From contig JAFTIH010000027.1 of the NCBI GenBank assembly GCA_017456985.1, positions 1,575 through 65,574 of the forward strand: DNA of 64,000 bases. Direction: 5' to 3'. Made by a program: the position numbers and the translations under genes. Of this stretch, positions 1 to 29,100 are shown piece by piece. The notes under the pieces were generated by a model that was not told the origin of the DNA, made no database searches, and was given only the letters and a program-made list of their open reading frames with translations. The number at the start of each line of letters is the position of its first letter. Position 1 is the stretch's first letter. Origin of the DNA: Clostridia bacterium (GTDB lineage Bacteria > Bacillota > Clostridia > Oscillospirales > CAG-272).

Positions 1-2
1 TG

Positions 3-9939: not shown

Positions 9940-9978
9940 CAAGGCTGTTTGAAATCCAAACAGCCTTGCTTTCCTCTT
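9940..9978 (+). terminator. Intrinsic terminator after ilvE
   Basis: 12-bp stem CAAGGCTGTTTG/CAAACAGCCTTG followed by a T-rich tail. Confidence 0.6.
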
Positions 9979-10048
9979 AAAATGCAAACTTAAGGTTGCT
10001 TTTATGCAAACAATAGTTTACATTTAAAGCAAAAGGAGAAAAACGAAA

Positions 10049-11332: not shown

Positions 11333-11351
11333 GCTGCCCGCGCAGTAGTTT

Positions 11352-11794: not shown

Positions 11795-11837
11795 CGTGCC
11801 CCGCGCGCAAAAAAAATCAACGAAAGGAGCGACCGAT

Positions 11838-12755
11838 ATGCCCATTCGCATACCGAACGAGCTTCCCGCAACCAAAGTTTTAGCGGATGAAAACATCTTC
11901 GTGATGACCGAGACCCGCGCACAGACGCAGGACATCCGCCCCCTTCGCATCGCGCTTCTGAACCTGATGCCCACCAAGATCGACACGGAAACCCAGCTTT
12001 CCCGTCTTCTCGGTAACACCCCGCTTCAGGTGGAGCTGACCTTGCTGCATACCAAAACGCACGAGTCGAAAAACACCTCCAAGGAGCACCTGCTCGCCTT
12101 CTATAAGACATTCGACGACGTCAAGAGCGAGCGCTTCGACGGTCTGATCATCACGGGTGCGCCCGTTGAGCAGATGCCGTTTGAAGAAGTCGAATACTGG
12201 GACGAGCTTTGTGAGATCATGGCGTGGAGCAAAAAGAACGTCCACAGCACCTTCCACATTTGCTGGGGTGCGCAGGCGGCGCTCTATTACCACTACGGTA
12301 TTCCCAAGTATGCGCTTCCCGAAAAGATGTTCGGCGTGTTCCCGCATACCGTTTGCGACCGCCGCTCTATGCTCTTCCGTGGCTTCGACGACACCTTCTT
12401 CGTGCCGCACTCCCGCCACACCGAGGTGCGCGAGGAGGACATCCGTGCGTGCGAGGCACTGACCGTGCTTTCCACCTCTCCCGCAGCGGGCGTTTACGCC
12501 GTCAGCGCGATGGAGGGCAGACAGATCTTTATTACGGGACATTCGGAGTACGATCCCGATACCTTAGCAAAGGAATTCTTCCGCGACCTTTCGCAGGGGA
12601 AAGCCATTCGCGTGCCCGAAAACTATTTCCCGAGCGACAACCCCGAAAACCCGCCGCTCGTGCTCTGGCGCGCTCATGCTAACTTGATCTACTCCAACTG
12701 GCTCAACTATTTCGTGTACCAGACGACGCCGTACGATCTGGATACGATGGAATAA
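11838..12755 (+). CDS. metA: Homoserine O-acyltransferase (MetA family; probably O-acetyl-forming given the adjacent metY)
   Basis: Canonical MetA N-terminus [23 protein letters not shown] with SD AAAGGAG 8 nt upstream. The track start at 11742 lies inside the tandem repeat and is rejected. Confidence 0.9.
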
Positions 12756-12820
12756 TGTTAATTTTTTGTTAAAATTCCAAAATACGGAACCCTCAAAACG
12801 GGGGCTCCATCCCCCAAAAA

Positions 12821-12868
12821 GCAGACGAAACCGTTGTTAAAGGCACGGGCTTTTCGTCTGCTTTTTTT
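12821..12868 (+). terminator. Intrinsic terminator after metA
   Basis: Stem GCAGACGAAA...TTTCGTCTGC followed by TTTTTTT. Confidence 0.75.
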
Positions 12869-13083
12869 CTTTTTTCGGCGTGTTGACGGAGCACGGAACT
12901 TTCGGGGAAAACCCTTCCTTTTCCTCGAAAGTCGCAGAAAAAACGAGTAAAACGGGGCGAAACGGGGGTAAAAATGAAAAAACCGTTAACGGCAAAATGT
13001 AAACCATTCTTTACAAATAGAGGAAAAATTTGGGTTATTTCGCGGCAGAATGTAGGCAAAACATACAAGAAACGCGCGCGAAA

Positions 13084-13100
13084 TTTGTCAATTTGACAAA
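13084..13100. promoter_or_regulatory. Perfect 17-bp palindrome TTTGTCAA-T-TTGACAAA; candidate operator
   Basis: Exact inverted repeat located 26 bp upstream of the -35 element of the large operon promoter. Confidence 0.35.
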
Positions 13101-13125
13101 ATTATTAAAAAAGAGAAAAAAACAG

Positions 13126-13154
13126 TTGATTTTATGAAAGAATTATTATATAAT
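13126..13154 (+). promoter_or_regulatory. Sigma-70-type promoter of the vWA/tubulin-like operon
   Basis: TTGATT (13126-13131), a 17 nt spacer, then TATAAT (13149-13154). This predicts a ~140 nt GC-rich leader before ATG 13300. Confidence 0.55.
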
Positions 13155-13299
13155 GTAACATAGGATTTTATCCCCTAGTATTATATTATAATAAATAAAG
13201 CATGTGCGCCCGTGCGCCCCGCACGCGTCACGGACGGTCCCCCCTCGGGCGGACCGCGAAACTACAACGTGAATTACACCCAGGAAGGAAACAACACGG

Positions 13300-16200
13300 A
13301 TGAAAAAGACGACGAAAATTCTCTCGGTATTGCTCGCGGTGCTTTTGCTCGTTCTGACGGTCCCCGTCACGACGGCGACGGCATCGAACGGCACCGACCC
13401 CTCTTACACCAAGAACAAGGTGGTCTCGGTCCTTTTCGACAACTCGGGCTCGATGCAGGGAGAAAAATGGAATACCGCGCGCTACGCTCTGCAAACGCTG
13501 ATGACGACGCTCGGCAAGAACGATACGCTCCGTGTCGTTCCGATGAACAAGACCAGCGGTGCCGTCAACAAGGACGGAGAATACGTAGAGGTCGATCTTG
13601 CCGCAGAGGATCGCAACAAGGAGATCGAGCGTATCTTTCTCACCGTAGGGGCTACCTTCCTCTCGGCAGCGACCCCCACCGGCAAGACGCCCTCGGAAAC
13701 CATTGGCGTGGCTTTGCAGGAGCTGATAGATATGGGCATGAAAACGACTGCCGAAACGGGCGCCGATGAGATCAGCAAAAACGATTACTTTCTTTTGGTG
13801 CTGACGGACGGTGCCTTCAACCCCAAGGGCGTCCCCGGCGAGGAGATCAAGGATCCCGCCGTGCTCTTTGACGGCTATTTCAAGGACGACCTTTCCAAGT
13901 ACGCTTCTTTCCAAAGCATCTACATCGGCTTCTCGGACGAGGCTCTTGACCTTAGCGCTTATTCCGCAAGCAGCGCGAATTTCTCTGCCTACAAGGCGAA
14001 GGATTCCGCAGCCATCGGCGGCGTGATGAAGCAGGTCGCCAACCGCATCACGGGCAGATACACGTTAGAGAATTTTACGGTCAACGGCAGTACCGTCACC
14101 ATTCCGCTGGATGGCGTGGGCTTTGCCCTAAGAAGCGTAACGGTGATGGCGACCCAGACCAACGCGCGCTTTTCGAGCGCCAAGTACGGAACGGAAACGC
14201 TCACCCCCTCTCAAAACGTGTCCTTCCAGCCCCCTGCCGGAATGGCGGGTAAGGGCGGCTTCACCGCGATCCTTTCCCGTTCTGCGGGAACCTTCTCGGG
14301 CGGCACCATCACCTTGACGCTGGACGAGGCGATCGAGAAAAGCTCCGTTTCCATCCTTCTTGAGCCTGCACTTGCGCTTTCTCCCATCGTGGAATGTGAG
14401 AAGGACGGCTCGTGGATCGAGGTGGATGCGGCTTACATCAACAGCAACCTCACGAAAAAGAACAAGATCCGCCTGTCCTACATCATCACGGAGCAGGGAA
14501 CGGGCAATACGGTGGACCTCGACGCCATTTTCGGCACGACGGTGGCGCGCGTGTCCTACAACACCAAAACATACGACGTCGGCGAAGCGTTCTCTCTTGC
14601 AACGGGTAACCACGAGATCGGACTTTCGGTCAGCGTGATGGACGGCGCGTACAGCCTGTACGCTTCCTTCCCCTGCGTGGTGCTTGACAACCCGACCTCC
14701 TTCCGCATCGAGGACGGCGGAACCGTCACCTCGGGCAACAACTACACCACCACCTTCAAGGTGTTTGACGACGGCAACCTGATCACCAGCCTTTCGGCGC
14801 TGAACGCTTACAGCCCCTCCGTCACGGCGACGCGTGAGGACGGAAGCACCATCCCCGTCAGCGTGATCAAGCGCGATGACGGCACCTTCGCGGCAACGCT
14901 TGCTCTGGACGGCGAGGCGTACGGCACCTTTAAGCTTCGCGCCACGGTGCGCTCGGCGGAGGGCAACCCCCGCACGCTGGACGTTGCGGTAGGGTACTAT
15001 CCTTCGGGACTCGTCATCACCCCCGACAAGACGGAGCTTTCCAAAACGCTCTTTGGCATCATTGACAACACCGAGGGCATCTCCTTCCGCCTGACGGCGC
15101 CCGACGCCGCAACGGGTAACGACATTGAGATCCCCTTCGGTCTTTCGCAGATCACCTACACGGTGACCGCAGGCACGGTGGATCTCACCGCGGCGGCAAG
15201 CGTTTCGGGCAACGTGCTTACGATCGTTCCCACGGCGGAGCTGCTCGGCGCGCTCGCGGGCAGCGTGGGTGAGCACGCGCTCAAGGTGAAGGTCGTCTTC
15301 AACAAGGGCAGCGCGGTCGAAACGGCAGAGGGAAGCGCCAAGCTCGCTCTGACCGATACGGTCTATGAGATCGTTCCCCTTGAAAAGACGCCCGCCCCCA
15401 TCAATCGCTTCTCCCTCTCCAAGAACGAGGGCTCCATCTATTTCCGCGTTCTGCGTGACGGCGTTTCGCTCTCCGAGGAGGAGCTTGCGGCACTGCTTGC
15501 CGACGGCTCGCTGACGGTTAACGCCAATCCTGCGGGCGGACTGCTTGACTTCATCAACGCCATCGGTCCGCTTGCCTCCGAGCAAACGGTGGAAACGGTG
15601 GACGGCGCCCCCGCCATCCGCGCGCGCATCTGCTCGTGTCAGGGCGGCTTCTTACCCTTCATCCTGACTGCAATGTTCGTTTCGGGCGATCGCGTCGAGA
15701 TGACGGCAAGCTATCGCGGTGTGGAGGCGATGAAGGCGGCTCCCCTTGCAAACGCGAGCATCTTCCAGTACGTCATCCGCATTCTCATTTACCTTTACAT
15801 CATCCAGCTGATCATCGTGGCGGTCACCTTCAAGGACCAGACGAAGGTCAAGCGTGTGCCGCAGGGCGCGCTCGTGCGTCTGTCGCTCTCCGCAAAGGAA
15901 GGACGGCACAAGGCGGTGGAAACCGTCAGGATCATCAAGGTCATCAGCCTGAAGGAGCACCTGATGCTCGGACGACTGATCCCCTTCGTAGGACTTCTGC
16001 CGCGCTTCCGCCAGAAGGACGTCCCCACCACCGTGGGCACGCTTCTTTACACCGAGACGGGACTTCGTATGCGCTCTACGCGTGCCTGCGTGGAAGCGGA
16101 GATCCGTACCCGTGACGGCAACAACCCCATCGTTCCCAAGGTTCGCCAGAAGTTTGCGAACATCAAGCCCAAGGGCGGTATCACGCTTCGGTACGAGCCT

Positions 16201-16344
16201 GCGGAGCTGAACAATATGTGGGTCGAGGCAACCGACCAGACCACCGAGGCGGCAAAGCTCTCCCGCCTTGGCACGATGAGCGGCCCCATCTTAAACGACA
16301 ACCTTTACGTCTTTATCGAGAAGAGCTTGTACGAAAAGCGATAA
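13300..16344 (+). CDS. Secreted or membrane-anchored von Willebrand factor A (vWA/MIDAS) protein with a beta-rich ectodomain, a C-terminal TM helix and a ~170 aa tail
   Basis: Signal peptide MKKTTKILSVLLAVLLLVLTVPVTTATA. MIDAS DNSGS (VLFDNSGSM) with downstream TPTGKT and LVLTDG. Long T/S/V/G-rich region. Hydrophobic helix IFQYVIRILIYLYIIQLIIVAVTF (nt ~15761-15832), then a basic tail. Confidence 0.8.
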   Translation: MKKTTKILSVLLAVLLLVLTVPVTTATASNGTDPSYTKNKVVSVLFDNSGSMQGEKWNTARYALQTLMTTLGKNDTLRVVPMNKTSGAVNKDGEYVEVDLAAEDRNKEIERIFLTVGATFLSAATPTGKTPSETIGVALQELIDMGMKTTAETGADEISKNDYFLLVLTDGAFNPKGVPGEEIKDPAVLFDGYFKDDLSKYASFQSIYIGFSDEALDLSAYSASSANFSAYKAKDSAAIGGVMKQVANRITGRYTLENFTVNGSTVTIPLDGVGFALRSVTVMATQTNARFSSAKYGTETLTPSQNVSFQPPAGMAGKGGFTAILSRSAGTFSGGTITLTLDEAIEKSSVSILLEPALALSPIVECEKDGSWIEVDAAYINSNLTKKNKIRLSYIITEQGTGNTVDLDAIFGTTVARVSYNTKTYDVGEAFSLATGNHEIGLSVSVMDGAYSLYASFPCVVLDNPTSFRIEDGGTVTSGNNYTTTFKVFDDGNLITSLSALNAYSPSVTATREDGSTIPVSVIKRDDGTFAATLALDGEAYGTFKLRATVRSAEGNPRTLDVAVGYYPSGLVITPDKTELSKTLFGIIDNTEGISFRLTAPDAATGNDIEIPFGLSQITYTVTAGTVDLTAAASVSGNVLTIVPTAELLGALAGSVGEHALKVKVVFNKGSAVETAEGSAKLALTDTVYEIVPLEKTPAPINRFSLSKNEGSIYFRVLRDGVSLSEEELAALLADGSLTVNANPAGGLLDFINAIGPLASEQTVETVDGAPAIRARICSCQGGFLPFILTAMFVSGDRVEMTASYRGVEAMKAAPLANASIFQYVIRILIYLYIIQLIIVAVTFKDQTKVKRVPQGALVRLSLSAKEGRHKAVETVRIIKVISLKEHLMLGRLIPFVGLLPRFRQKDVPTTVGTLLYTETGLRMRSTRACVEAEIRTRDGNNPIVPKVRQKFANIKPKGGITLRYEPAELNNMWVEATDQTTEAAKLSRLGTMSGPILNDNLYVFIEKSLYEKR

Positions 16345-16373: not shown

Positions 16374-19300
16374 ATGAAAAGCATATTGATCCTTGGCGTC
16401 GGCGGCACCGGCAGCCGCGCCGTCAATCTGTTGCAAAAGAAGATCTCCCGTATGGGACAAAACGAGGAGACCAAGATCGTTTCCATCGTGTTTGATACCA
16501 ATGCGGCAGATGAGAAGAATATCGACGCCGCCTCCGTCATTTCTCTTTCGGAGAATGCGACGGTGGGTATGGTGCGCAACCGTCTTGGCGCACAGTGCAA
16601 CGAGTGGTTCCCGAACGACCACAAGTACGACGAGAACAATCTTTCCATCGGTGCGGGGCAGTGGAGAAAGCAGTCCTATCTTGCGTTCCTCAACGCGATG
16701 AACGACGCCATTCGCCGCAACGAGTTGGATAACGCCTTGCAAAAGCTGGTGGACCAGACGCAGTCGAATTTCTCGATCGACATCTATACCGTCGCCTCGC
16801 TTGCGGGCGGTACGGGCTCGGGTACCTTTATCCCTCTGACGCTGTACGTCAAAAAGCGCTTGCGTCAGCTCTTCCCGAACGCCACCGTGCGTGCCAGAGC
16901 GATGCTCGCCTGCCCCGATATTTACGAGGCAAAGCAGAACGGCGACCGTATGAACATCACGAGCATCTACGCAAACGCGTATGCGATCCTGCGTGAGCTC
17001 AACGGTATCAACCAGGTCGTTTACGGACTTAACGGTGCGGATTACGACAGCGGCAAGGGCGAGGTTGCGGGTCGCGGCAGAACGCCCGTGTCCTTCCGCC
17101 TCGGCAGTGAGCAGAGCCCCGTGGGCGTGCTCTTCGACTCCAAGGATAAAAAATACCATTCTCCCACGGCGGCGCCCTTTGAGCGCGTTTGCCTGATGGA
17201 GAAGATCGTCAACGTGACCTCGGTCGCCGCGCACGACGAGGCGATGGCAAACATCCTGTATTCGCTTATCTGCACCAAGGCGGGCGGCGAGCTCGACGGC
17301 ATCTGGTCCAACGAGGAAAAGAAGCGTGCGGGTGAAACGGGTCACAACTGTATGTATGCGGGCATCGGCTCCTCGGAGATCCAATACCCCGTCGATACGC
17401 TGCTTGAATACTTCGCTTGGCGCAAGACGCGCGACGACGCGGAGGGCGAGTGGCTGGTGTTGCACAACGCCACCGAAGCGCAGATCTCCGAAAAGCGCAA
17501 GCTTGCCAAGGAAATGCGCAAGGAATACCACCTGACCACCGAGGATTACGCAAAGCTCTTCCTCGATGCGCAAAAGGCAGAGGAGCGCACCGAAACGAGC
17601 TCGGTGACCGAGCTCGTGCATTCCGCGATCCGCTACTACGAAAAGGAAAACGGCACGGAAACCCTCAAATACGTCTTTACCGAGTATTGGGACCGCTTAC
17701 AGCAGAGCTTCCGCTCGCTGATCCCCGACCACAAGGCGATCGCGTCGCGCATCGCGACGCTGGATCCCGTACAGCGCCCCGGCATCTTTTCCTCCAAGAG
17801 CACCAAGGAGAGCGCGGCACAGCAGGTCTGCGACAATGCGGAGCAGGTCTATCTGCGCTTGAACGACTACTATCAGATGGCGGTAGATACCATCCGCAGT
17901 CAGGTCAACGTCTGCGCGGACGCGATCCTTCCGCTTGACACCAAGAAGGATCCCTGTGCAAACCTCGGGCTTTCCTTCACCCAGAACGTTCTCGCACGCG
18001 ACGGCAGCTTCATTCACCCCGTAGCGGCGATGGTGCAGCTTTGTACGCTTCGCCTTGCGATCGCGGATACGCTCGCAGGGATGAATTCCGCCGAGTGGAA
18101 GGATCTTTCCTCCTTCGACGTCGGCAAGCTTCCGATGAATCTGCTCGGATGCACGAGTGACCTCTCGGCGCTCGGTCTTGGCGGCAGAGCAAGCAGAAGC
18201 GCTTACTTAAAAAAGGACAGGACCCGTCTTGCCTCCATCCTTTCGGAGTCGGGCAAGGAGGAGTACGTCAAGCAGAAGACGGATTACGAGGCAGACTGTG
18301 CGGCAGTCCTTAAGGACGGCGATATGATCCTCACCCGCCTTGCTAACGAGGCGTACGAAATGCTCCTTAAACGCGTGCTCGGCGTGATCGCTGACCGCGT
18401 CAACACGATGATCGAGAGCTATCGCTCCTTCTTCCGCCGCTTTACCGAGCAGAAGGCTCGCCTTTCGGATCGCGTCAAGCGCGTCGAGGTAGAGCGCACG
18501 GGCTCCTCGGATACCTCCTGCATCTACGTCGGTGCCTCGGTTGAGAGCCGCCGCCGTCACTACGAGCGCCTCTTGGAGGAAAGCATGTCGGGCACGACCG
18601 AGAGCAACAACATCGCAGGCCGCGGCGTCTTTGCCATTTCCTATCAGATGGCGTGCGCAAAGCGCTTCCGCGGCGAGGACGACATCAAGGTGGATACCAC
18701 GGGCGTCTTTACGGCAATGTACGAGGCGAACAAGGTGGCGATCCGCAAGTCGGACTACTTCCACGAGATCGCTTCCAAGACGGTGCTTGAGGTCATCGCG
18801 GACGAGAACGTGGGCAGAGAGAGCGAGGTCGGTAAGAAGATCATGATCACCGCGTACGAGATGGCGAAGCCCGCTCTGCGCGTGATCGAAAACGGAATGC
18901 AGAAGGAACAGGCAGTCGTCCTCGTTCCCGACGCGATGGAAGAATATCTCGAAGCGAACACCCATATCTTCGATCTTTCCGTCGGTGGCGGCGATGCGCG
19001 CGCCTGCACGGACGACCTACTCGGCAGATGGTGCCAGAAGGCGCTCGTCCGTCAGGAGGAGAGCGTTCCTGCCAACACCATCTACATTTGCCGTGCGCTG
19101 ATGAGCGTTGACTCCATCGACATCATCAAGGTCAACGAAAAGAACCTTGAGGACGGCTACTATAAGTATTATCTCGAAACCGTCAGAATGGCGGGCTCCG
19201 ACCGCTCCAAGTGCGCGGACGGCTCGGGCTATTCGGACGACAGCAAGCTGCCGCACCTTGGCTTTAACTGGCACAAGCGCGGCTATTTGCCCCTCATCAA

Positions 19301-20216
19301 CCACGACCTCGAGCTCGAGGCGGACAAGAAGATGGTCAAGGCGCTCCTTTACGCGCTTCTCAACGGCGAGCTTTCCTTTAAGAAGGAATACGGCGACGTC
19401 GCGTTCCGTTACGACGGAGAGAAGATCGTGGGTGACGGCAGATTCGTGGATGACAACAATCTCGTCGGACTGATCTCCTGGCTCCGTCCGCAGGACGATA
19501 AGATCGAGCGCTGGAGCGAGGCGTTTGACCGCGAGGTCGAGGAGCAGCTTGCATCGCTGCCCTCCGCAGGCTTCGTCCACCAGATCGGCAAGGCGAAGAC
19601 GGCACTGACGCTGACGAAGTATCTGAAGATGCTCCGCCGCAACGTCTTTGAAAGCCTCTTCAAGACGGCGGGTAAGGAGAAGGGAAGTGCCGAGGACGAG
19701 AAGAAGTATGCAAAGCTGAAAAAGAAGCTGAACATGAACATCTTCGAGTTCGCTTACCGCATCAAGACGGAAGAGGAAGGGCATTACGGCTACGACTGTA
19801 ACGACGCAGAGAAGATCTTGCGCGTTGTCAGCGACCTGCTTTGGGAGATGTGCGAGCGCGTCATTTCCAGCGACAAGGATCAGTTCAAGGAGGTTTACGA
19901 GTGGGAGCTCGACTACTTCATTGCTGAGATGTACTTTGACGAGGATATGCCCGAGGACGAGGCAGACCGCGTCGCTGTGATGAAGACGATGCTGCACTTT
20001 GCAAACCGTGCAGACAGCTTTATGGAGATCGTTCCCTCCAAGGATCCCAGCAAGAAGTGGGAAAAGAAGGACTACAATCTCTCGGAATTTCTCGAAAAGC
20101 GGATCTCCGCGCTTGACCGCGTTGCGAAAAACAGAGCAAAGAGCGAGGGCGTGGATGAGGGCGAAGCCGACGAGGGTAGAGCTGACGAGCTTCCCCTCGA
20201 TGCCGCCGAGGTATGA
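16374..20216 (+). CDS. Giant tubulin/FtsZ-superfamily GTPase-like protein (Tubulin_2-type N-terminal domain plus ~900 aa helical extension), paralog 1
   Basis: ILILGVGGTGSRAVN at the N-terminus (T1-like loop). GGTGSG signature at nt 16806-16823. GAGQWRKQSYLAF motif. Acidic C-terminal tail EGVDEGEADEGRADELPLDAAEV. SD AAAGGAA upstream. Confidence 0.75.
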   Translation: MKSILILGVGGTGSRAVNLLQKKISRMGQNEETKIVSIVFDTNAADEKNIDAASVISLSENATVGMVRNRLGAQCNEWFPNDHKYDENNLSIGAGQWRKQSYLAFLNAMNDAIRRNELDNALQKLVDQTQSNFSIDIYTVASLAGGTGSGTFIPLTLYVKKRLRQLFPNATVRARAMLACPDIYEAKQNGDRMNITSIYANAYAILRELNGINQVVYGLNGADYDSGKGEVAGRGRTPVSFRLGSEQSPVGVLFDSKDKKYHSPTAAPFERVCLMEKIVNVTSVAAHDEAMANILYSLICTKAGGELDGIWSNEEKKRAGETGHNCMYAGIGSSEIQYPVDTLLEYFAWRKTRDDAEGEWLVLHNATEAQISEKRKLAKEMRKEYHLTTEDYAKLFLDAQKAEERTETSSVTELVHSAIRYYEKENGTETLKYVFTEYWDRLQQSFRSLIPDHKAIASRIATLDPVQRPGIFSSKSTKESAAQQVCDNAEQVYLRLNDYYQMAVDTIRSQVNVCADAILPLDTKKDPCANLGLSFTQNVLARDGSFIHPVAAMVQLCTLRLAIADTLAGMNSAEWKDLSSFDVGKLPMNLLGCTSDLSALGLGGRASRSAYLKKDRTRLASILSESGKEEYVKQKTDYEADCAAVLKDGDMILTRLANEAYEMLLKRVLGVIADRVNTMIESYRSFFRRFTEQKARLSDRVKRVEVERTGSSDTSCIYVGASVESRRRHYERLLEESMSGTTESNNIAGRGVFAISYQMACAKRFRGEDDIKVDTTGVFTAMYEANKVAIRKSDYFHEIASKTVLEVIADENVGRESEVGKKIMITAYEMAKPALRVIENGMQKEQAVVLVPDAMEEYLEANTHIFDLSVGGGDARACTDDLLGRWCQKALVRQEESVPANTIYICRALMSVDSIDIIKVNEKNLEDGYYKYYLETVRMAGSDRSKCADGSGYSDDSKLPHLGFNWHKRGYLPLINHDLELEADKKMVKALLYALLNGELSFKKEYGDVAFRYDGEKIVGDGRFVDDNNLVGLISWLRPQDDKIERWSEAFDREVEEQLASLPSAGFVHQIGKAKTALTLTKYLKMLRRNVFESLFKTAGKEKGSAEDEKKYAKLKKKLNMNIFEFAYRIKTEEEGHYGYDCNDAEKILRVVSDLLWEMCERVISSDKDQFKEVYEWELDYFIAEMYFDEDMPEDEADRVAVMKTMLHFANRADSFMEIVPSKDPSKKWEKKDYNLSEFLEKRISALDRVAKNRAKSEGVDEGEADEGRADELPLDAAEV

Positions 20217-20287
20217 CCCGTTTTCGGGTGACCGCGCAATCAAAAGCTTTCATTATTAAAATATATATATCTTGAAGGAGAAGAAAA

Positions 20288-23200
20288 ATGAAGAGTGTCC
20301 TCATTCTTGGCGTCGGTGGTACCGGTAGCCGCGCAGTCAATATGCTGCAAAAGAAAATTCTCAGAATGGGCAAGCAGGACGACGTCAACATCGTTTCCGC
20401 CGTATTGGATACCAACGCGGCAGACGAGAAAAACATCGATACTGCGACCATCGTGTCCCTTTCTGACAACGTGACCGTTAAGACGGTCCGTGAGCGTCTC
20501 GGTGCTTCCGTGGATGACTTTTTCCCCAAGGACTCGCTGTTTGACAGCAACAACATCTCCATCGGCGCAGGTCAGTGGAGAAAGCAGTCCTACCTTGCGT
20601 TCCTCAACGCGATGGCAGGCAGACAGAAAAACAATCTTGACAGCGCCCTCGAAAAGCTGGCTGACAAGTCCTCCCCCTCCATCTCGATCGACGTTTATAC
20701 CGTCGCGTCGTTAGCAGGCGGTACGGGCTCGGGCTCCTTTATCCCGCTGACGCTGTACGTCAAGAAGCGCATCCGTGAGATCTTCGGTGCCAAGACCACC
20801 ATTCACGCAAAGGCAATGCTCGCCTGCCCCGATATCTACGAGGGCAAGCAGAACGATCCGCTGAATATCACGAGCATCTATGCAAACGCATATGCGATCC
20901 TTCGTGAGCTCAACGCCATCAACCAGGTCGTTTACGGCTTGAATTCCGCAAATTATGACGACGGCAGCGGCGAGTTCGCACGCGCAGGCCGTACGCCCGT
21001 GCGCTTCCATATCGGTACGAAGGACAGCCCCGTTGGCGTTCTGTTCGATTCCCAGGATCCCGCATACCATACGCCCGAGGCAGCTCCCTTTGAGCGTGTT
21101 TGTATGATGGAGAAGATCACGGGTGTGTCCTCTATCATCGCACACGACGAGGCGCTTGCCAACACGCTGTACTCCCTCATCTGCACCAAGGCAGGCGGCG
21201 AGCTTGATTCCATCTGGTCCAACGAGGAAAAGAAGCGTGCCAACGAAACGGGTCACAACTGCATGTACGCAGGTATCGGCTCCTCGGAGATCCAGTATCC
21301 TATCGACGAGATGATGGAATACTTTGCATGGCGTAAGACCCAGGCGGATGCCGAGGGTGCTTGGCTTGCTCTGCACAACGCCACCGAAGCCCAGATCGCG
21401 GAAAAACGCCGTCTTGCCAAGGAAATGCGCAAGGACTTCCATATGACCGTCAAGGACTACGCGAAGTTCTTTACTGATGCCCAGAAGGCAGAGGCACGCA
21501 CCGAGACCTGCAACGTGACCGAGCTGATCCGCTCCTCCGTTATGCGCGAGGTCGAGCGCGGTGACAGCATCGAAATGGTCAGCATTCTTGCCGAGTATTG
21601 GGACGGCATCAAGGAGGCTCTTGCCGACCTCGTTCCCGATCACAAGCCCGCAGCAGGCAAGATTGCATCCCTTGACCCCGTAGAGAACCCCGGTCTGTTC
21701 GGCGGCAAAGCAGAGAAAGAGGGCAAGGCACAGGCAATCTGTGACAATGCTTCCCAGGCGTATAGCACGATGAACAAGTACTATCACGACGCCGTAGAAG
21801 CGATCAACACCCAGATCGACGTTACGACCGACGCCATCCTTCCCATCGATACCAAGAAGGACCCCGAGGCAAACCTCAAGCTCTCCTTCGCAAGAAACGT
21901 TTTACAGCGTGACGGCTTCTACATCCATCCCGTTGCCGCTATGGTACAGCTTTGTACCTTCCGTCTGATGCTGCAAGAGGAGCTTTCCGCTCTGACGGGC
22001 AGCGAGTGGAAGGATGTCGGCTCGTACGAGATCGGCAAGCTTCCCGCAAGCCTGCTTTCCTGCACGGAAGACCTCGATACGCTGGGTCTTGGCGGCAAGG
22101 CAAGCAAGAGCTTCTATCTTAAGGGCGGCAGATCGCGTTTCACCTCTCTGCTTGGCGATACCGCTGCTGACGCTTTCAAGAACCAGAAGACGGATTATGC
22201 AACCGACAGCGAGGCACTTCTCAAGGATGCCGATATGCTTCTGACCAAGCTCCACAACGAGGCGAGCGAGATGCTTTTGCGCCGCGTGATCGAAAAGCTT
22301 GGCGAGCGCATCGACGCTCTGATCGAGAGCTACCGTTCCTTCTTTGGCCGTTTTGCTGAGCAGAAGGACCGCCTTGTCGATAAGGTCAAGAGAGCGGAAG
22401 AGGACAAGGCAAAGAACGCCGACACCTCTTGCGTTTACGTGGGTGCGTCCATCGCACAGCGTCAGCGCCACTACGAGCTTCTGATGGAAGAGAGCATGAC
22501 CGACGAGCGCGAGGGCAACAGCGTTGCCGGCGAGAGCGTGTTCGGCATCTCCTACAAGATGGCTTGCGCAAAGAAGGGCAACGCCGCAGAGGAAGAGCGT
22601 GTTGACGCTACGGGCGTCTTTGACGCGATGAAGAAGGCAAACCTCGTACAGCTTTCCAAGACCGACTACTGCGTCGCACTGCGTGCAAGAAACGTCTTTG
22701 AGGTGCTCGCAGAGGAGAACCGCGGTCACGAGTATGAGGCAGGTAAGACGGCAGTTCAGACGGCTTACGAAATGGCAAAGCCCGCCCTTCAGGTCGCTAC
22801 GGGCGGTCAGCATAAGAATCAGGCAGTCGTTCTCGCGCCCAAGAGCGTTGAGGAATATCTGCAGAAGAATACCGATCGCTTCGGCATTTCGATCAGTGCC
22901 GCTTGCACGGACGACTTGGTCACCAGATGGTGCCCCGAGTCCTTCGTCCGCATTGAGGACACCGTACCGCGCAACACCATTTTCATCTGCCGCGCACTGA
23001 TGAGCGTCAACTCGGTTGACATCGTGAAGGTCAACGAGAAGAGCGGTGAGGACGGCTACTACAAGCGTTATCTGGAAGCAGTCCGCATCGGTGAGGAGCA
23101 GAAGAACGACAGTATGTTCCCGCACCTTGGCTTTAACTGGCACAAGCGCGGTTACCTGCCCTTCATCAACCCCGACCTTGAGGCAGAGGCAGACAAGAAG

Positions 23201-24052
23201 ATGATCAAGGCGCTCCTTTACGCCATTATGAACGGCGAGATCACCTTCAGCGTGCAGTACTCCGACAAGGCGTTCCGTTACGGCAACGATAAGATCGTTG
23301 GCGACGGCAAGTTCGTGGACGAGAACAACCTGCTCGGACTGATCGCTTGGCTGCGTCCTCAGGACGACAAGATCGAAAAGTGGTGCGCAGAGTTCGACCG
23401 CAACGTGGAGGATCAGCTCAAGGTCCTTCCCAAGACGGGCTTTGTACACGAGATCCCCGCCGCAAAGGCAAAGCTGACCACCACCAAGTACCTGCGTATG
23501 TTCCGTAAAAACATCTTCGAGACCATTATGGAGAATAGCTCCGGCTCCGCTCAGACCGTGATGAAGAAGGATCTGAATATGAGCCTGTTCGAGTTCGCTT
23601 ACCGTATCAAGGTCGAGGAAGAGAGCCGCGGCGGCTACGACTGCAACGACGCTGAGAAGATCCTCAAGGTCGTCAGCGACCTGCTTTGGGAGCTCTGCGA
23701 GCGCGTTGTCAGCAGCGAGAACGACCAGTTCCAAGAGGTTTATCAGTGGGAGCTTGACTACTTCATTGCCGAGCTTTACTGCGACGACGATATGCCCGAA
23801 AAGAGCGCAGGCGACGTGGCAAGAACGATGCTCCAGTTTGCAAACCGTGCAGGCTGCTTTATGGAGATCAGCCCCTCGACCGATCCCGCAAAGGGCAAGT
23901 GGGAGAAGAGACCCTTCGACCTCAACGCCTTCCAGAGAGACCGCATGAACGCTTGCGTTAGCCGTGTGATGGCAAGCAAGGGCGGCAAGGCACCCGCAGA
24001 GGATGCTCCCGCGACCGAGGCGCCCGCAACCGAGGCACCTGTCGAAGAATAA
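20288..24052 (+). CDS. Giant tubulin/FtsZ-superfamily GTPase-like protein, paralog 2
   Basis: Collinear with 16374-20216 over its whole length. It has the same GVGGTGS, GGTGSG (nt 20717-20734) and GAGQWRKQSYLAF motifs. Acidic/Pro-rich tail APAEDAPATEAPATEAPVEE. SD GAAGGAGA upstream. Confidence 0.75.
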   Translation: MKSVLILGVGGTGSRAVNMLQKKILRMGKQDDVNIVSAVLDTNAADEKNIDTATIVSLSDNVTVKTVRERLGASVDDFFPKDSLFDSNNISIGAGQWRKQSYLAFLNAMAGRQKNNLDSALEKLADKSSPSISIDVYTVASLAGGTGSGSFIPLTLYVKKRIREIFGAKTTIHAKAMLACPDIYEGKQNDPLNITSIYANAYAILRELNAINQVVYGLNSANYDDGSGEFARAGRTPVRFHIGTKDSPVGVLFDSQDPAYHTPEAAPFERVCMMEKITGVSSIIAHDEALANTLYSLICTKAGGELDSIWSNEEKKRANETGHNCMYAGIGSSEIQYPIDEMMEYFAWRKTQADAEGAWLALHNATEAQIAEKRRLAKEMRKDFHMTVKDYAKFFTDAQKAEARTETCNVTELIRSSVMREVERGDSIEMVSILAEYWDGIKEALADLVPDHKPAAGKIASLDPVENPGLFGGKAEKEGKAQAICDNASQAYSTMNKYYHDAVEAINTQIDVTTDAILPIDTKKDPEANLKLSFARNVLQRDGFYIHPVAAMVQLCTFRLMLQEELSALTGSEWKDVGSYEIGKLPASLLSCTEDLDTLGLGGKASKSFYLKGGRSRFTSLLGDTAADAFKNQKTDYATDSEALLKDADMLLTKLHNEASEMLLRRVIEKLGERIDALIESYRSFFGRFAEQKDRLVDKVKRAEEDKAKNADTSCVYVGASIAQRQRHYELLMEESMTDEREGNSVAGESVFGISYKMACAKKGNAAEEERVDATGVFDAMKKANLVQLSKTDYCVALRARNVFEVLAEENRGHEYEAGKTAVQTAYEMAKPALQVATGGQHKNQAVVLAPKSVEEYLQKNTDRFGISISAACTDDLVTRWCPESFVRIEDTVPRNTIFICRALMSVNSVDIVKVNEKSGEDGYYKRYLEAVRIGEEQKNDSMFPHLGFNWHKRGYLPFINPDLEAEADKKMIKALLYAIMNGEITFSVQYSDKAFRYGNDKIVGDGKFVDENNLLGLIAWLRPQDDKIEKWCAEFDRNVEDQLKVLPKTGFVHEIPAAKAKLTTTKYLRMFRKNIFETIMENSSGSAQTVMKKDLNMSLFEFAYRIKVEEESRGGYDCNDAEKILKVVSDLLWELCERVVSSENDQFQEVYQWELDYFIAELYCDDDMPEKSAGDVARTMLQFANRAGCFMEISPSTDPAKGKWEKRPFDLNAFQRDRMNACVSRVMASKGGKAPAEDAPATEAPATEAPVEE

Positions 24053-24157
24053 TTCCCGGCGGGTTGTCCGCCAAAAATTTCCCGATGCCCTATACGGGCA
24101 TCGGGACCCCCAAAGGGGCGCCGCAAGGACGCCCGATCAAAGAAAGGGTTGAAACCG

Positions 24158-26179
24158 ATGTTAACCTATGTGATCAATACGTCTGAGAATAAGGTTTTGA
24201 AGAGTGAGATTCTTTTCGATCTTGTCGGATATAACAAGATCGAATGGATGCGCAGCGGACTTTCTGCCGTCGCGGACTGCACCGATGAGATCATTCGCCG
24301 TCAACAGCCTATGACCGCGGAGGAATACCGCGTGGTGGTGCTCGTTGACTTTTTGGCGTTTGAAAAGACGCTGTTTCCCGAAGAAAATCCGGTCAGCGAA
24401 TATCTGACGATTTACAGAAAGCTGATTGAAATATATCTTTATAACCATCTTTATATGCCGCTTCGCCGTGCCAAGCTCGGCTTTGAGGGGCTTGAGGTGT
24501 TCTATATTCAATACACCGAGAAGAACACCATCCGCGAAAACGCGGCGGAGAAGATGCACTTAGCCCAGCTTTTAGAGCTTTCCGAGGAGGAGATCGAGCG
24601 CGCGGCGGGCAAGGTGGACGAGGAGAAGAAGGACGCGGAGGAAAGCGCCCCCAAATCTGCGCGCGCAAAAGCCAAAAAGCAGGAAGAAGAGGAGCCGACC
24701 GAGACGAAGACGCCCGCGCAGGTGTACGACGTCTTCAAGGTCGCGTACCGCGACGGGGAGTTTTTCTTCCGTGCCGAGGATTTCTGCAAGAATACCAAGG
24801 CGGGAGAGTCGGTGACCTTTGACACCTTCTACCGCAATTTTGGCGAAAACCACGTAAACGCGTACCGCGCCTTCGGCGCCCGCTCGCGCACCTACGTAGC
24901 GGAGGCGGCGTCTGCAAGACTTGAAAGCCGCGCCGCGTTCGATAACTTGAATTTGTCGCTCGCCCTCATCCGTGCTTACGAGCAGGATATGAAGTTTGAG
25001 GACGCGACGGAGAGCGACGACGTTTTGGACATCCCCAAGATGAACAAGGAAGCGTTCTTCCGTGTGATCCAAAAGGCATACGGCAAGGTGAAAAACGCCC
25101 TTGAGCTCGTCCGTCAGAGCGGAAAAGCCAACGGCTTCTACCGCTTGGAAACGCCCACCTCCGTGTCTGCGGATATTTGCCGCGACACCCTGACGGATGA
25201 AGAGCGGACGGAGATCAGCTCCCAAGCCAAGGGGAAGGACATCAAGGATCAGTTTGCCGAGATCCGCCGCTACGCCGCGACCAAGGCGGGAGAGAAGAGC
25301 GACGACGAGCGCAAGAAGCTGACCCAATATATGAGCGCTTACAAAACGGAGCGCGATAAGATCCGCAACCACACGACGGAGCAGGACGTCAAGATGATGC
25401 TCCGCGACGCGAAAAAGCAGGACAAGTACCCCTCGGGTTTAGAATATGAAAACGCGGTCGAGAAGAAAAAATCGACGATGCGCACCATTTTGAAGCACGC
25501 GATCAACGCCGACTACAAGGGCACCGATTACGAGGAAGAGATGAAGGACGCCAACGAGGTCTATGACGGCTACCTGCGCGCCAAGGCAATGCTTGCGAAG
25601 AATTTCCGCACGCACGTCGTTTGCCTGCTTCTCGTTCTCGTGGCGATGATCGTTCCGTACGTCGTGTTGCAGAGCACGGATTTTTCCCGCGTGGGCGCGA
25701 TCCTGCTCGCTTCGATCGCCGTCGCGATCTTCAGCGGCGTGTACATTTTTTCAGCCTTCGTCCACATCATTCCTCTTATGCGGCAGATCACGGCGGCGAA
25801 GATCAGAATGACGGACATCTATGCCAAGTGCCTTTGCAAGCGCGCTGAGGCGATGCTTGCCCTGCGCCATCGCTACGAGCTGTACCTGCCCGCCGTGGAG
25901 CAGATCTACTACGAGCTTTACACGCTTGAGGTCCTGCACAATGCTAACCGCGAGATCAATCGCCATATCGAGGAGCACAGAGAGATGCTCGAATGCCTGC
26001 GCGACGTTCTTCTCGGTATGCTCAACAGTATGCAGGTCACGCACAGAGCGACGGAGGACGTGGCGCTCGACGAGGACGAATTCCTCATCGGCGAGTCCAT
26101 CCGTGCCAACAGTATTTATAAAGTCTTTACGCTTGACGTGATCGAAGAGATCTTTGGAGAGGGAGGTATGAGAATATGA
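24158..26179 (+). CDS. Membrane protein of unknown function: N-terminal globular domain, charged K/E-rich helical region, two TM helices
   Basis: I prefer ATG 24158 (SD AAAGAAAGGG) over TTG 24149. Highly charged region EEEIERAAGKVDEEKKDAEESAPKSARAKAKKQEEEEP. Hydrophobic helices VVCLLLVLVAMIVPYVVL and VGAILLASIAVAIFSGVYIFSAFVHIIPL. I recognise no family. Confidence 0.6.
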   Translation: MLTYVINTSENKVLKSEILFDLVGYNKIEWMRSGLSAVADCTDEIIRRQQPMTAEEYRVVVLVDFLAFEKTLFPEENPVSEYLTIYRKLIEIYLYNHLYMPLRRAKLGFEGLEVFYIQYTEKNTIRENAAEKMHLAQLLELSEEEIERAAGKVDEEKKDAEESAPKSARAKAKKQEEEEPTETKTPAQVYDVFKVAYRDGEFFFRAEDFCKNTKAGESVTFDTFYRNFGENHVNAYRAFGARSRTYVAEAASARLESRAAFDNLNLSLALIRAYEQDMKFEDATESDDVLDIPKMNKEAFFRVIQKAYGKVKNALELVRQSGKANGFYRLETPTSVSADICRDTLTDEERTEISSQAKGKDIKDQFAEIRRYAATKAGEKSDDERKKLTQYMSAYKTERDKIRNHTTEQDVKMMLRDAKKQDKYPSGLEYENAVEKKKSTMRTILKHAINADYKGTDYEEEMKDANEVYDGYLRAKAMLAKNFRTHVVCLLLVLVAMIVPYVVLQSTDFSRVGAILLASIAVAIFSGVYIFSAFVHIIPLMRQITAAKIRMTDIYAKCLCKRAEAMLALRHRYELYLPAVEQIYYELYTLEVLHNANREINRHIEEHREMLECLRDVLLGMLNSMQVTHRATEDVALDEDEFLIGESIRANSIYKVFTLDVIEEIFGEGGMRI

Positions 26180-29100
26180 CGGTTTTAAAGATCGTATTTA
26201 TCGTCGTATCGCTTTTGCTCCTGTTCTTCCCCCTCTTGCCGCTTCCTATGAAGCTGCGCAAGTTCTCCACCTTCCGCAAGCTGCGCTACGACGCGCCTCA
26301 CAACCGTGTGAACGCGGCGTTTATTCTCTTGACCATCCTTGAATTCGTGGCGATCGCCATCGTTTACAGCGCGATCTTTACGCTGGCGATCAAGATCGCC
26401 TCCGTTCCCTTTATCGCGAGCCTTTTGCAGAAATTCTCGGACACGGTGGCGTTCAACAGCAACGTGCTCTTCCGCGTGCTGCTTCTCAACATCGTCACCC
26501 TTTACGCCTTCCTTATCCTGAAAGCCATCGTCAAGGGCTTCTTGAACGTGCTGTTCGGCTTTACCAAGAAGAAGGCAAAGAAAAAGAAGAAAAAGGAAGC
26601 GGAGGAAGCGACGGCTGACGAAAAGCCCGCAAAGCGGAAAAAGAAGCCCGGCCGCATCTCCTATTTCTTCCGTCCCCGCCGTAAGAAAAAGACGGACGAG
26701 GAGGACGAGGAGCCCTCTGCACAGGACGAAAAGCCGACCGAGCGTGTGGTTACGGCAAAGAACGAGAAGTTCAAGAAGGAACACCCCATTCTTTTCCGTA
26801 TGTATCAGAAATTCTGGGGACTGTTCTTTGAGGGTCCCGATTTCTACCACGCAAAGCGCTTCGTTTCGTCTGCAGTTTCCGCGATCCAGTTCTTTATCTA
26901 TCTGGTCGAGATCCTTTACGCGATCTTGTTCCTCTTGATGCTTCTCGCCGTATTTTTCCCGCTTCCTTCGTTCTTCTACGGCGTGCTCAACTGGATGACG
27001 ATCAAGACCTACATCTATCCCTTCGTGTCGCTTTTGCTGTTGCAGGAGATCTGCAACACCTTCCGCGCACCTTGCAAGGAGATCGAGCCCGTAGAGGAAA
27101 CCTACGAGAAGGAGATCGAAGAGGTCGAACAGCAGAAGAAGATCGCGCTTGACAAGCTGCGCAACGATATTCTTCGCCGCTTTGCCAAGAATCACAGCAT
27201 CCGCTTCTTCCCCGCAACGGATGCGAAGGAAATGTCCGAGTATCACGTGACGAGCAAGGTCTATCAGGACGCCCTCACGTATATCGGCACCTATATGAAA
27301 GAGAACTACGGACGCGTGGTGCAGAGCTATATGAGCGGTCTTGACGCCGTGTTCAACGACCGTCACGTGTATTTCGGCTCCTCCTTCTATTCTCAGCTTG
27401 GCGAATACATCATCACCTATACTTATATCCGCCTGCTTTCGGGACAGAGAATGATCTTTATCGTTTCCGACCGCTCGCAGGTCGTGAAGCTGCAGCAGTA
27501 TATCGGTAACCGCCTGACGGATATCACGGGCGTGACGCGCGAGGAGACCTGGCGCGTTTACAGTGCCGACTCGCATCACGTCAACGAAGCGGACGTTCTC
27601 GTGGGTGTTCCCGAGGACTTTGCGACGGATAACCTGGTTGAAAACTACCCCGCCTTCTTCGAAGAGGTGTGCAACGCCGTCTTCGTGGATGCGGACAGCA
27701 TTTTGAATCTCAACAGCTACCTTTGCACCATTATGGCGTGCCGCCTGCTTTCGGCGACCGAGCAAAAGATCCGTTTCCTTTTCCTCTCGCGCGACGTCCT
27801 GCAGGGCTTCTCCGCGTCCTTGCGCAAGTTCTTCTGCATCGACGAGGAGATCGTGGACTGCAACAGCGCCGAGGAAAACGAAAACGTTTCCTATATGCTT
27901 TGGAACCGTGAGTGCAACTCGCTTTACAACAAGAACGGACAGAGCGAGACCACGATCGAGTGCCTCGTCGCGGAAGCGGCTTACAGCGCGGACGTGGACG
28001 GCATCCGTATTCTGACGAGCGTACCCCTTAAGCCTGCCGAGAAGCAGAACTTCCTAGCACACGACGTGGAGATCAACGAGTTCCATAAGAAGGTGCCGCG
28101 CGTCAACTATATGATCTGCACCGATGACCGCTGCAACCTTGCCGCCGCCATCTATGCGTACACGCGTTTCCACGGCAGAGAAGCCTCGATCGTGCATATT
28201 CTCAGCCGTCCCTATCTGCTTCGCGAATACTTCGGCGACCGCGTTGAGCTGTACGTCAATCGCTCCGATCTGATCAAGCCCCGCGCGACCGAGCACGCAG
28301 ACACCAAGAAGCTGCTCCTTCTGCGCCTCGTTTGCGAAGCCACCTCAAGCCCGAGCGGCATTCCGCTCTCCGTCTTCACCGAGAAGGTGGATGCCATTAT
28401 GACGGAGCGTGGCTGTGCGCCCGCCTTCGACCTTTCCGCCCGCGTCGCTTACGTGCTCAGCGAGCTGATGAGCGACTCCACTCTCATCGAGAAGACGGAA
28501 GAGGAAAAGAGCGACGGAACGCTTACCTACTATACCAAGGCGAAGAAGCCCGTTTATACCTACTTTATCGTGCTCCAGCCCGAGCGTAAGGACGGCTACA
28601 CGTTGAAGAACGAAAACGGCATCACCTTCCTTTGCCTTGAACGCATCTTTGATAAGCTTCTTGCCAACAACCGCCGCGTGGAGCTCGTTCTGCACGGCTC
28701 GGTGATCGGCACGCTGGAAACCTTCCCCGAGCGCGTTTATCAGCAGTACGTTCCCGGTCAATACATCATTTTTGACAACCACGAGTATGAAATTGAGAAG
28801 ATCTCGGATGACCGTACCGTCATTTATTTAAGACAGGAGAACATCACCAACAACTCTTGTCTTGATACGGCATTCCTTCGCCATTACGAGGTGCGCCGCC
28901 GTCACGACGACGAGCATTTCCTGCACGGCGAAAAGGAATACAGCGCAGGACAGCTTTTGAAGATCGAAACGGTCGTACAAAACGCAAGCATCCTGGGCGA
29001 GACGTACGGTACGTACCGACTGATGGCAGACAGCCAGACGCTCAACTTCAAGGATCTTGTGGGCGGTAACTTCCGCCTTGCGGACAGCGTCATCAAGAAG

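Follow-up and report, generated by a model that had tools for sequence, protein, structure and literature searches.

Tandem FtsZl1-family tubulin-like paralogues in a conserved membrane-associated vWA cassette of Clostridia

The stretch of DNA considered here, referred to as the window, comprises 64,000 nucleotides from a Clostridia bacterium (GenBank assembly GCA_017456985.1, contig JAFTIH010000027.1, positions 1,575 to 65,574 of the forward strand). At positions 16374-24052 of the window two adjacent genes encode very large tubulin-like proteins, paralogues A and B, which are firmly established as FtsZl1 (Tubulin_2) members of the FtsZ/tubulin superfamily. They are genes 2 and 3 of one five-gene operon, for which co-transcription is predicted, where gene 1 encodes a vWA-domain protein (P1) and genes 4 and 5 encode the proteins P4 and P5. 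That A and B belong to a conserved, membrane-associated vWA cassette is equally firmly established, as is the observation that keeping two diverged copies is a property of the clade in which they are found.

Paralogue A (16374-20216, forward strand) is 1280 amino acids (aa) long and paralogue B (20288-24052, forward strand), which has the same architecture, 1254 aa. An earlier note on this DNA, made from the letters and a list of open reading frames (ORFs), had placed two ORFs here, and both are confirmed in coordinates, strand and length. Its description of the two proteins as collinear from end to end also holds, with BLASTP aligning them over their full length with 2% gaps. Its estimate by eye, of roughly two-thirds identity, captured the closeness of the two paralogues and was slightly high, the computed values being 61% identity with 77% positives in the end-to-end BLASTP alignment and 62.5% identity in a global MAFFT alignment. 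The global identity is unevenly spread, at 73% in residues 1-400, 53% in residues 401-720, 57% in residues 721-940, 67% in residues 941-1240 and 27% in the tails. In A the GTP-binding domain takes up residues 1 to about 400 (nt 16374-17573, forward strand), followed by an extension (residues 401-1260) with helices of 44 residues (475-518) and 69 residues (638-706). All of the motifs cited in the earlier note are present in both proteins. These include the T1 loop, GVGGTGS, at residues 8-14 of each (nt 16395-16415 in A and 20309-20329 in B, forward strand), and the T4 loop, AGGTGSG, at residues 144-150 of each, whose GGTGSG lies at the nucleotides originally given (16806-16823 in A and 20717-20734 in B, forward strand), together with GAGQWRKQSYLAF and YANAYAILRELN. 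A T3-like GAGQWR occurs at residues 93-98 of A, and in B, too, the T3-like loop is intact. The T4 sequence of both proteins fits the PROSITE tubulin signature, [SAG]-G-G-T-G-[SA]-G.

Both proteins end, as had been proposed, in an acidic tail. In A this comprises residues 1261-1280 (nt 20154-20213, forward strand), which are modelled as disordered with a predicted local distance difference test (pLDDT) score below 50, and in B it is a segment rich in Pro, Ala and Glu that closes with -EE. The acidic tail is a trait specific to the two-copy clade: the net charge of the last 30 residues is negative in 26 of 26 proteins of this clade, with a mean of -4.85, compared with a mean of -0.74 in control windows within the same 26 proteins and of -0.13 in the last 30 residues of 55 single-copy relatives. 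Public annotation labels B a 'hypothetical protein' in a Clostridia metagenome-assembled genome (MAG; P0013).

The assignment to the FtsZ/tubulin superfamily comes from both sequence and predicted structure. The Pfam model Tubulin_2 (PF13809) matches A at E 2.7e-36 (126 bits) and B at E 3.7e-33 (115.7 bits), against a cut-off of 27 bits, with the matches running over residues 5-350 of the proteins and positions 1-349 of the 356 in the model. The classical Tubulin/FtsZ model PF00091 yields a sub-threshold match only (E 6e-5), and neither A nor B has a Pfam match to Tubulin_C or FtsZ_C. Residues 1-400 of A were modelled with AlphaFold2 on an 82-sequence alignment, giving a mean pLDDT of 85.4, and in a Foldseek comparison of this model with the PDB the first 35 ranks are all held by CetZ, FtsZ, TubZ or tubulins (E 7e-7 to 6e-4). 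The best of these are CetZ (3zid and 4b45), several FtsZ structures and TubZ (2xka), and ordinary Rossmann dehydrogenases first appear at rank 36. The tubulin-like identity that the earlier note had read from the motifs of the N-terminal domains is thus borne out. At the level of sequence the family profile detected zero relatives of the tubulin-like family among PDB sequences, and hhalign of a wider profile of the family with three FtsZ sequences gave E 7e-5 and a probability of 62%, aligning T1, the NTD/DTD motif, the T3-like GAG, T4, S5/T5 and H5. In this profile alignment YANAYAILRELN corresponds to helix H5, as in the 2010 paper of Makarova and Koonin (PMC2875224). An assignment of the same motif to H7, which had come from a single-sequence hhalign run at 4.6% probability only, was rejected once the better profile run had put it on H5.

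The remainder of A, residues 401-1280, was likewise modelled with AlphaFold2, at a pLDDT of 87.3, and consists of helical bundles, including the two long helices, interspersed with small beta modules, with the last 20 residues disordered. A Foldseek search of the PDB with these C-terminal 880 residues gave no match (best E 0.11). The earlier note had found the extension of about 900 aa to be without counterpart in FtsZ, TubZ or BtubA/B; it is no novelty, as this is the standard FtsZl1 architecture described in 2010: an FtsZ-like N-terminal GTP-binding domain, a long coiled coil and a helical C-terminal domain, about 1,050 aa in total, with a vWA gene as operon partner and with T6-H7 elements and a C-terminal polymerisation domain that are not recognisable by sequence (PMC2875224). 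The family is moderate in size: among 1.84 billion representative proteins, one for each 50%-identity cluster, it has 954 matches at E<=1e-3 and 141 at E<=1e-30.

The earlier note had suggested that an acidic catalytic residue in the T7 loop of one paralogue only would mark an asymmetric heterodimer. The positions that are invariant over 76 diverse family members are G8, G10, G11, G13, D41, T42, F79, P80, G93, A94, Q96, R98, S101, S142, A144-G150, P181, N201, Y203, A204 and E208, and P268, A292, Y296, N313, G323, N325, G330, P339 and W360 after H5, with none of the last group acidic. A and B are identical at every one of these positions, and no T7-type N-x-D-x-x-D/E motif is conserved across the 76 members, so that the proposed asymmetry is not borne out and no conserved T7 motif can be identified. 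Past H5 the profile alignment with FtsZ carries essentially zero confidence and, because nothing beyond this helix aligns reliably, it does not establish that the proteins have a T7 catalytic loop and a longitudinal interface of the tubulin kind. Residue D288 was tried as a T7 candidate, as it falls on D212 of Escherichia coli FtsZ; the match has zero confidence and the residue is not conserved family-wide, and it was dropped as evidence.

How general is the pairing? In all, 93 related loci (L001-L093) were fetched. A scan of genome contigs with a single protein found six close loci only, exact protein look-up provided six distant ones (L001, L002 and L009-L012), and a metagenome scan with the family alignment added 80 loci that are more distant, their N-domains sharing 23-46% identity. 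In public records the closest relatives come from MAGs of Oscillospiraceae, Eubacteriales and Clostridia. The five-gene cassette recurs in all six loci found by look-up, with its two Tubulin_2 genes side by side and in differing genomic contexts, and at least two tubulin genes are present in 13 of the 13 fetched subfamily loci that cover the tubulin genes, close relatives included. The distant loci from the metagenome scan share a homologous cassette, recognised through iterative searches. Its products are P1-like vWA proteins (about 700-760 aa), FtsZl1 proteins (about 1,130-1,240 aa), P4-like hairpin proteins (about 610-740 aa) and P5-like proteins (about 1,000-1,490 aa). In this four-gene form, with a single tubulin gene, the cassette occurs widely among gut Firmicutes. 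If a cassette counts as complete when P1-like and P4-like genes stand on either side of its tubulin gene or genes, 59 are complete, 48 of them with one tubulin gene (36 non-redundant) and 11 with two. Paired retention, as the earlier note had proposed it, therefore holds in the subfamily and fails in the wider cassette, where the single copy that it had named as speaking against a pair prevails. The single-copy majority rules out an ancestral obligate heterodimer and leaves room for a derived one.

A number of observations on individual loci bear on copy number. In L004 (Eubacteriales MAG JAZRGD010000028, 10001-18953) three tubulin-like genes stand in a row. The first is A-like (1277 aa), the second, of 950 aa, has diverged and its T1 is degenerate in part (GVGGNGV), and the third is B-like and truncated where the contig stops; the short middle copy clusters with the A+B clade at 98.5% bootstrap. 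L003 and L006 both come from one MAG, SVRR01 (Oscillospiraceae SIG648), in which the whole locus, including the Cys/Met enzyme and homoserine O-succinyltransferase genes of its flank, occurs in two versions, each on its own contig; the MAG seems to combine two strains in one bin, rather than to represent a single genome with two cassettes. An independently derived tubulin pair is found in L031 and L083. A second tubulin hidden within the single-copy cassettes was also considered and rejected, with hhalign of P4 and the distant third genes against the tubulin N-domain being negative. Among 2.9 million viral contigs there was one weak match only (L013, IMG/VR UViG_3300014489_000002), so that there is no sign of a phage-borne system; the protein encoded at 9608-14263 of this contig is 1551 aa long and weakly resembles the FtsZl1 N-domain (E 3e-11), and an ORF of 1137 aa comes before it.

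The history of the pair was followed with neighbour-joining trees and bootstrap. The orthologues of A and the orthologues of B each form a clade with 100% bootstrap, and A and B together form a clade that excludes the copies of all other loci, again at 100%. The A/B split is thus young and confined to the sub-clade of the window and L003-L007, and an ancient split of the alpha/beta type is not supported. A separate 'copy 1' clade joins L001, L002, L009, L010 and L012 at 96.5% bootstrap, and the two copies of L001 never cluster together, a topology that implies at least two rounds of duplication; the two-copy state was re-established after turnover or homogenisation. Both copies, each with its own orthologues, are kept under purifying selection, the ratio of non-synonymous to synonymous substitution rates (dN/dS) being 0.03-0.14 for A and 0.03-0.18 for B. 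Between the A and B clades 89 positions show fixed differences, of which 40 fall within the N-terminal 400 residues and none in T1, T3, T4 or H5. The second copy of L009, L010, L012 and L014 falls short by 200-300 residues (943-1071 aa) and has a degenerate T1 (GAGRTGC, GIGQFGA, GIGESGC), and in L009 T4 is lost too. The retention of such shortened and apparently nucleotide-blind second copies argues against simple redundancy and for a partner role.

The operon itself begins with a promoter-like site about 145 nt upstream of gene 1, the best sigma-70-like match being TTGATT-17-TATAAT at 13126-13154 on the forward strand, which is a consensus match only, at 10 of 12 positions. The gaps around paralogue A are short, with 29 nt before it and 71 nt to paralogue B, and genes 4 and 5 overlap by ATGA, such that the stop of gene 4 lies within the start of gene 5. 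Gene 1 (13300-16344, forward strand) encodes the 1014 aa of P1, in which a signal or anchor helix (residues 7-25) is followed by a predicted extracellular vWA domain, whose metal-ion-dependent adhesion site (MIDAS) reads DNSGS at residues 47-51 (nt 13438-13452, forward strand), and then by beta-rich repeats, a transmembrane helix (residues 825-843) and a cytoplasmic tail of about 170 aa. The Pfam models VWA, VWA_2 and CobT_C all match residues 37-173 below threshold (E 0.017 for P1 of the window). Among 28 P1 homologues the MIDAS positions D47, S49, S51, T130 and D170 are invariant and four of the 28 match Pfam VWA at E<=3e-6; the P1 family profile found no relatives among PDB sequences. Of 94 sources, these being the 93 loci and the window, 84 have a P1 homologue immediately upstream of the tubulin gene.

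Downstream of B the operon continues past a G+C-rich hairpin with an 11 bp stem and without a T-run on the forward strand (24080-24106), which might influence mRNA stability or the ratio of the P1, A and B products to those of P4 and P5. Gene 4 (24149-26179, forward strand) encodes P4, of 676 aa when read from TTG, with an ATG at 24158 the more likely start. The N-terminal 485 aa or so of P4 are soluble and contain charged segments of low complexity; a two-helix transmembrane hairpin (residues 489-507 and 515-533) and a C-terminal part of about 140 aa follow. Every cassette examined encodes a protein of this topology at the place of gene 4, and hhalign joins P4 to the distant third genes with a probability of 96% (E 5e-9). 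Gene 5 (26176-31647, forward strand) encodes the 1823 aa of P5, composed of an N-terminal polytopic membrane region (residues 3 to about 300) in which one loop is rich in lysine, an extensive Cys-rich region that includes a CxxC...CxxC zinc ribbon (residues 1168-1193, nt 29677-29754, forward strand) and a C-terminal transglutaminase-like Cys-His-Asp domain (residues about 1486-1811, nt 30631-31608, forward strand). The P5 family profile matches PDB entry 9crn_A, a 'transglutaminase-like domain-containing protein', at E 5.8e-30. P5 homologues were detected in 57 of the 94 sources, and a homologue search for P5 gave unannotated proteins only, a few of them with Transglut_core. Some single-copy cassettes have the P5 homologue divided over several ORFs: L080, L088 and L092 encode the transglutaminase-like part on its own, in about 410-440 aa, and L019, L023, L056, L057 and L089 do so for a module that corresponds to P5 residues about 1113-1362 and measures about 300 aa; P5 is therefore a fusion of separable modules. 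The operon closes with a bidirectional, intrinsic-terminator-like hairpin (31662-31693; stem of 13-14 bp, T-runs on both strands) that it shares with a convergent sbcC-like gene. Three of the five operon products are membrane proteins. An NCBIfam scan of all five returned nothing useful.

At a fixed chromosomal site, the cassette is hypervariable among close relatives. The same genes flank it in the window, L001 and L003-L006, with proteins that are 82-87% identical, whereas P1 of these loci is only 41-47% identical to P1 of the window, the L001 tubulins are 38-40% identical to A and B, and P4 ranges from 40 to 68% identity. Within P1 the pattern is mosaic, with a tail that is 73% identical to that of L006 and an ectodomain that is about 40% identical, and with the reverse for L003 and L005. 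TIR-domain genes adjoin the cassette in L009, L011, L012 and L014, and TIR_2 is the commonest Pfam family among 77 flanking ORFs, with 5 matches. Three of these genes encode TIR_2 plus LRR_5 proteins of about 550 aa (L009, 3357-5003; L014, 3271-5028; L012, 2953-4614, reverse strand), each with an unannotated neighbour of 507-683 aa; the neighbour in L011 is instead a Band_7-DZR-TIR_2 protein (1-912, reverse strand). Such TIR neighbours occur in several lineages with a degenerate or divergent second tubulin copy and none lies beside the window cassette. A preprint on Esx defence in Actinobacteria was also considered, and its abstract and section headings show no link to the cassette.

What, then, might be the purpose of two tubulin-like giants within a membrane-associated operon? 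A non-redundant partnership of A and B is likely. The fuller reading preferred here, which is given a probability of about 0.6, is that the two would co-assemble under GTP control at the membrane and link the vWA protein to P4 and P5. In this mechanism A and B would associate through their GTPase domains, their helical extensions or both, and would build an oligomer or short polymer that is regulated by GTP and lies at the cytoplasmic face of the membrane. This assembly would couple the binding of a ligand by the variable extracellular vWA protein P1 to the membrane-embedded P4 and P5, and the transglutaminase-like domain of P5 might provide the output, as either a peptidase or a cross-linker. 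The logic of the cassette would resemble that of systems that combine a nucleoside triphosphatase (NTPase) with a vWA protein. For instance, in the triads of MoxR (an AAA+ protein), DUF58/vWA and TgpA an NTPase, a protein of vWA fold and a membrane-anchored transglutaminase-like protein are encoded together. The likeness to these triads is a presumptive one, and the NTPase here is tubulin-like and not AAA+. The rapid and mosaic diversification of the cassette suggests a role in surface sensing or biological conflict rather than in housekeeping division.

A number of results weigh against this co-assembly reading. The global template-modelling (TM) scores of the A N-domain to its FtsZ and tubulin relatives are low, at 0.24-0.46 in Foldseek, and even alignments that cover 311-328 columns of FtsZ or CetZ reach only 0.41-0.46. 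To this must be added the zero-confidence alignment with FtsZ past H5, the absence of asymmetry between A and B at conserved sites, and the single tubulin gene in most complete cassettes. None of the five operon proteins matches a model in PADLOC-DB 2.0, the cassette flanks are by Pfam scans mostly housekeeping, with TIR/LRR genes in a few lineages only, and the literature searched contains no experimental study of any FtsZl1/Tubulin_2 protein. With such flanks and so few TIR/LRR genes the locus is not treated as a defence island.

The relationship between A and B could be tighter or looser than this. An obligate alpha/beta-like heterodimer is plausible and unproven, and its full form, in which A and B would build head-to-tail GTP-dependent protofilaments like those of alpha/beta-tubulin or BtubA/B with one subunit giving the catalytic T7 residue, is considered unlikely. 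Such an arrangement would suit the tandem diverged copies in all 13 subfamily loci, the T1 and T4 loops that are intact in both proteins and the disordered acidic tails that are confined to the two-copy clade, and the loss of glycine loops from one copy in sister lineages loosely recalls an asymmetric dimer. However, the invariants after H5 offer no acidic residue or T7-type motif for one subunit to supply, A and B do not differ at any invariant site, the duplication is young, and with 48 of 59 cassettes being single-copy the ancestral protein works without a paralogous partner; moreover, neither T6-H7 nor the C-terminal polymerisation domain was found in FtsZl1 (PMC2875224). At the other extreme, A and B may be duplicates with separate or overlapping jobs that form homo-oligomers and do not bind each other directly, in which case one might dock on the tail of P1 and the other on P4 or P5, or the second copy might add dosage. 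A copy number that ranges from 1 to 3 among relatives, the repeated duplication and turnover, and nucleotide-binding motifs that are all identical in A and B would be consistent with such a division, and another tandem paralogue pair in the window indicates that local duplication is not unusual. This looser arrangement is nevertheless also judged improbable, given long-term purifying selection on both copies with 89 fixed differences, the re-establishment of the two-copy state after turnover, and the keeping of degenerate short second copies in four loci, where loss would be expected of a copy that served dosage alone.

The remaining alternative concerns the role of the cassette rather than the pair, namely that it is a housekeeping cytoskeletal machine for membrane remodelling or vesicle formation and not a device for conflict or surface sensing. 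Makarova and Koonin predicted just such a role for FtsZl1 operons (PMC2875224), and their prediction accords with the three membrane proteins among five products, with a chromosomal position among metabolic and DNA-repair genes in conserved synteny, with the want of a PADLOC match, and with the lack of an integrase or G+C anomaly near the operon. Set against this, the cassette proteins are only 38-47% identical where the flanking enzymes reach 82-87%, P1 is mosaic, the distribution is patchy with varying insertion sites, and TIR-domain neighbours occur in several lineages, which makes a housekeeping machine a possibility, though a doubtful one.

With respect to known systems, the closest likeness of A and B is to FtsZl1 as published, with which they share the N-terminal FtsZ-like GTP-binding domain with GGTGSG, a long coiled-coil or helical middle, a helical C-terminal domain and a size of about 1,000-1,300 aa, along with a vWA gene immediately upstream, membrane-protein partners and no recognisable T6-H7 or FtsZ C-terminal domain (PMC2875224). 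Where the two differ is in copy number, with one FtsZl1 gene in each of the published representative operons examined and two full-length copies here, in the partners, which are the hairpin protein P4 and the 1,823-aa P5 in place of the listed OmpA, kinase, GTPase and B1-B9, and in the acidic disordered tails, which are specific to this clade. Kaur et al. (2020) placed tubulin and vWA genes in GTPase-centric conflict systems and described firmicute conflict systems with two tubulin-plus-coiled-coil genes (PMC7159879), so that tandem tubulin-like genes are not unprecedented. Their GAP1-N2 systems share with the operon the two tubulin and coiled-coil genes, a membrane protein with an extracellular vWA domain and membrane-proximal, multi-component complexes predicted to be cytoskeleton-like; they differ in that the two tubulin genes here are close paralogues (61%) and that the output-like component is a transglutaminase-like giant (PMC7159879). 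Pfam scans detected no DO-GTPase, GAP1, FNIII-repeat or YtkA-vWA in the operon or the scanned neighbours, and in the five operon proteins there was no match to GTPase, GAP1 or FNIII models up to E 10, the presence of GAP1 models in the Pfam copy used being unconfirmed. No P-loop motif is visible in P4 or P5.

The likeness to heterodimeric tubulins, namely alpha/beta-tubulin and BtubA/B of Prosthecobacter, lies in the adjacent or paired paralogues and the tubulin signature motif and, for alpha/beta-tubulin, in the acidic C-terminal tails. Unlike these, A and B show only a remote fold similarity (TM 0.3-0.35) and neither a Tubulin_C domain, an identifiable T7 loop nor catalytic asymmetry, and they have some 880 extra residues, an operon of membrane proteins and a young, lineage-specific duplication. 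With CetZ, FtsZ and TubZ/PhuZ they share the T1, T3 and T4 nucleotide-binding loops, but they lack FtsZ_C, the TubZ C-terminal helix and any centromere or adaptor genes (TubR, TubY), and the cassette, unlike TubZ/PhuZ, is not on a plasmid or phage.

Neither the FtsZl1 family (2010) nor the pairing of tubulin-like genes in firmicute systems (2020) is new. The literature searched holds no description of this cassette composition, of the graded copy series, of the clade-specific acidic tails or of the fixed-site hypervariability of the cassette, and no tubulin-like anti-phage system was found there. Within the tubulin/FtsZ superfamily no branch is more divergent than FtsZl1, and the 880-residue extension combines a confident model (pLDDT 87) with no solved structural relative. 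The four- or five-gene membrane cassette is widespread in Firmicutes of the human and animal gut, with components that are all 'hypothetical protein' in public records, and its hypervariability at a fixed chromosomal site makes it a candidate surface-sensing or immunity module. Closely related cassettes with one copy, two intact copies, three copies, or an intact and a degenerate copy constitute a natural comparison set, and this graded series renders the transition of a tubulin-like GTPase from homomeric to heteromeric directly testable. A more speculative proposal, offered tentatively, is that a single-gene tubulin GTPase has repeatedly become a non-redundant pair that acts in the cytoplasm as the GTP-gated switch of a hypervariable and hitherto undescribed transmembrane cassette, with sensing and effector parts, for conflict with phage, bacteriocins or contacting cells. 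If this were true, a clade of gut Oscillospiraceae-type Clostridia would represent an independent bacterial re-run of the step that gave alpha/beta-tubulin, with one subunit a nucleotide-blind pseudo-GTPase in some lineages.

The surroundings of the operon are those of a bacterial chromosome. Upstream lie the genes for a Cys/Met pyridoxal phosphate (PLP) enzyme and for homoserine O-succinyltransferase, and downstream SbcC/SbcD-like genes and DNA polymerase I. The SbcC-like SMC/Rad50 ATPase (864 aa) and SbcD-like metallophosphatase (396 aa) are encoded at 31702-35483 on the reverse strand and converge on the operon; the ATPase has only generic PADLOC ATPase matches (mad3, LmuB, PtuA), the pair is read as housekeeping SbcCD, and the SbcC-like gene holds the same position in L001, which ends inside it. 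Near the operon no integrase and no G+C anomaly were seen, and at 58-62 kb the G+C content of the window drops to 0.45-0.49. An S10-Clostridia leader (Rfam RF03136, 48 bits) at 41237-41310 on the forward strand marks the start of the S10 ribosomal operon and confirms a clostridial chromosome. The second tandem paralogue pair of the window, at 581-2845 and 3208-5547 on the forward strand, encodes proteins of 754 and 779 aa that are 67% identical and that have an unusual fusion of helix-turn-helix (HTH_19/HTH_3), cupin and AMP-binding (acyl-CoA synthetase-like) enzyme parts.

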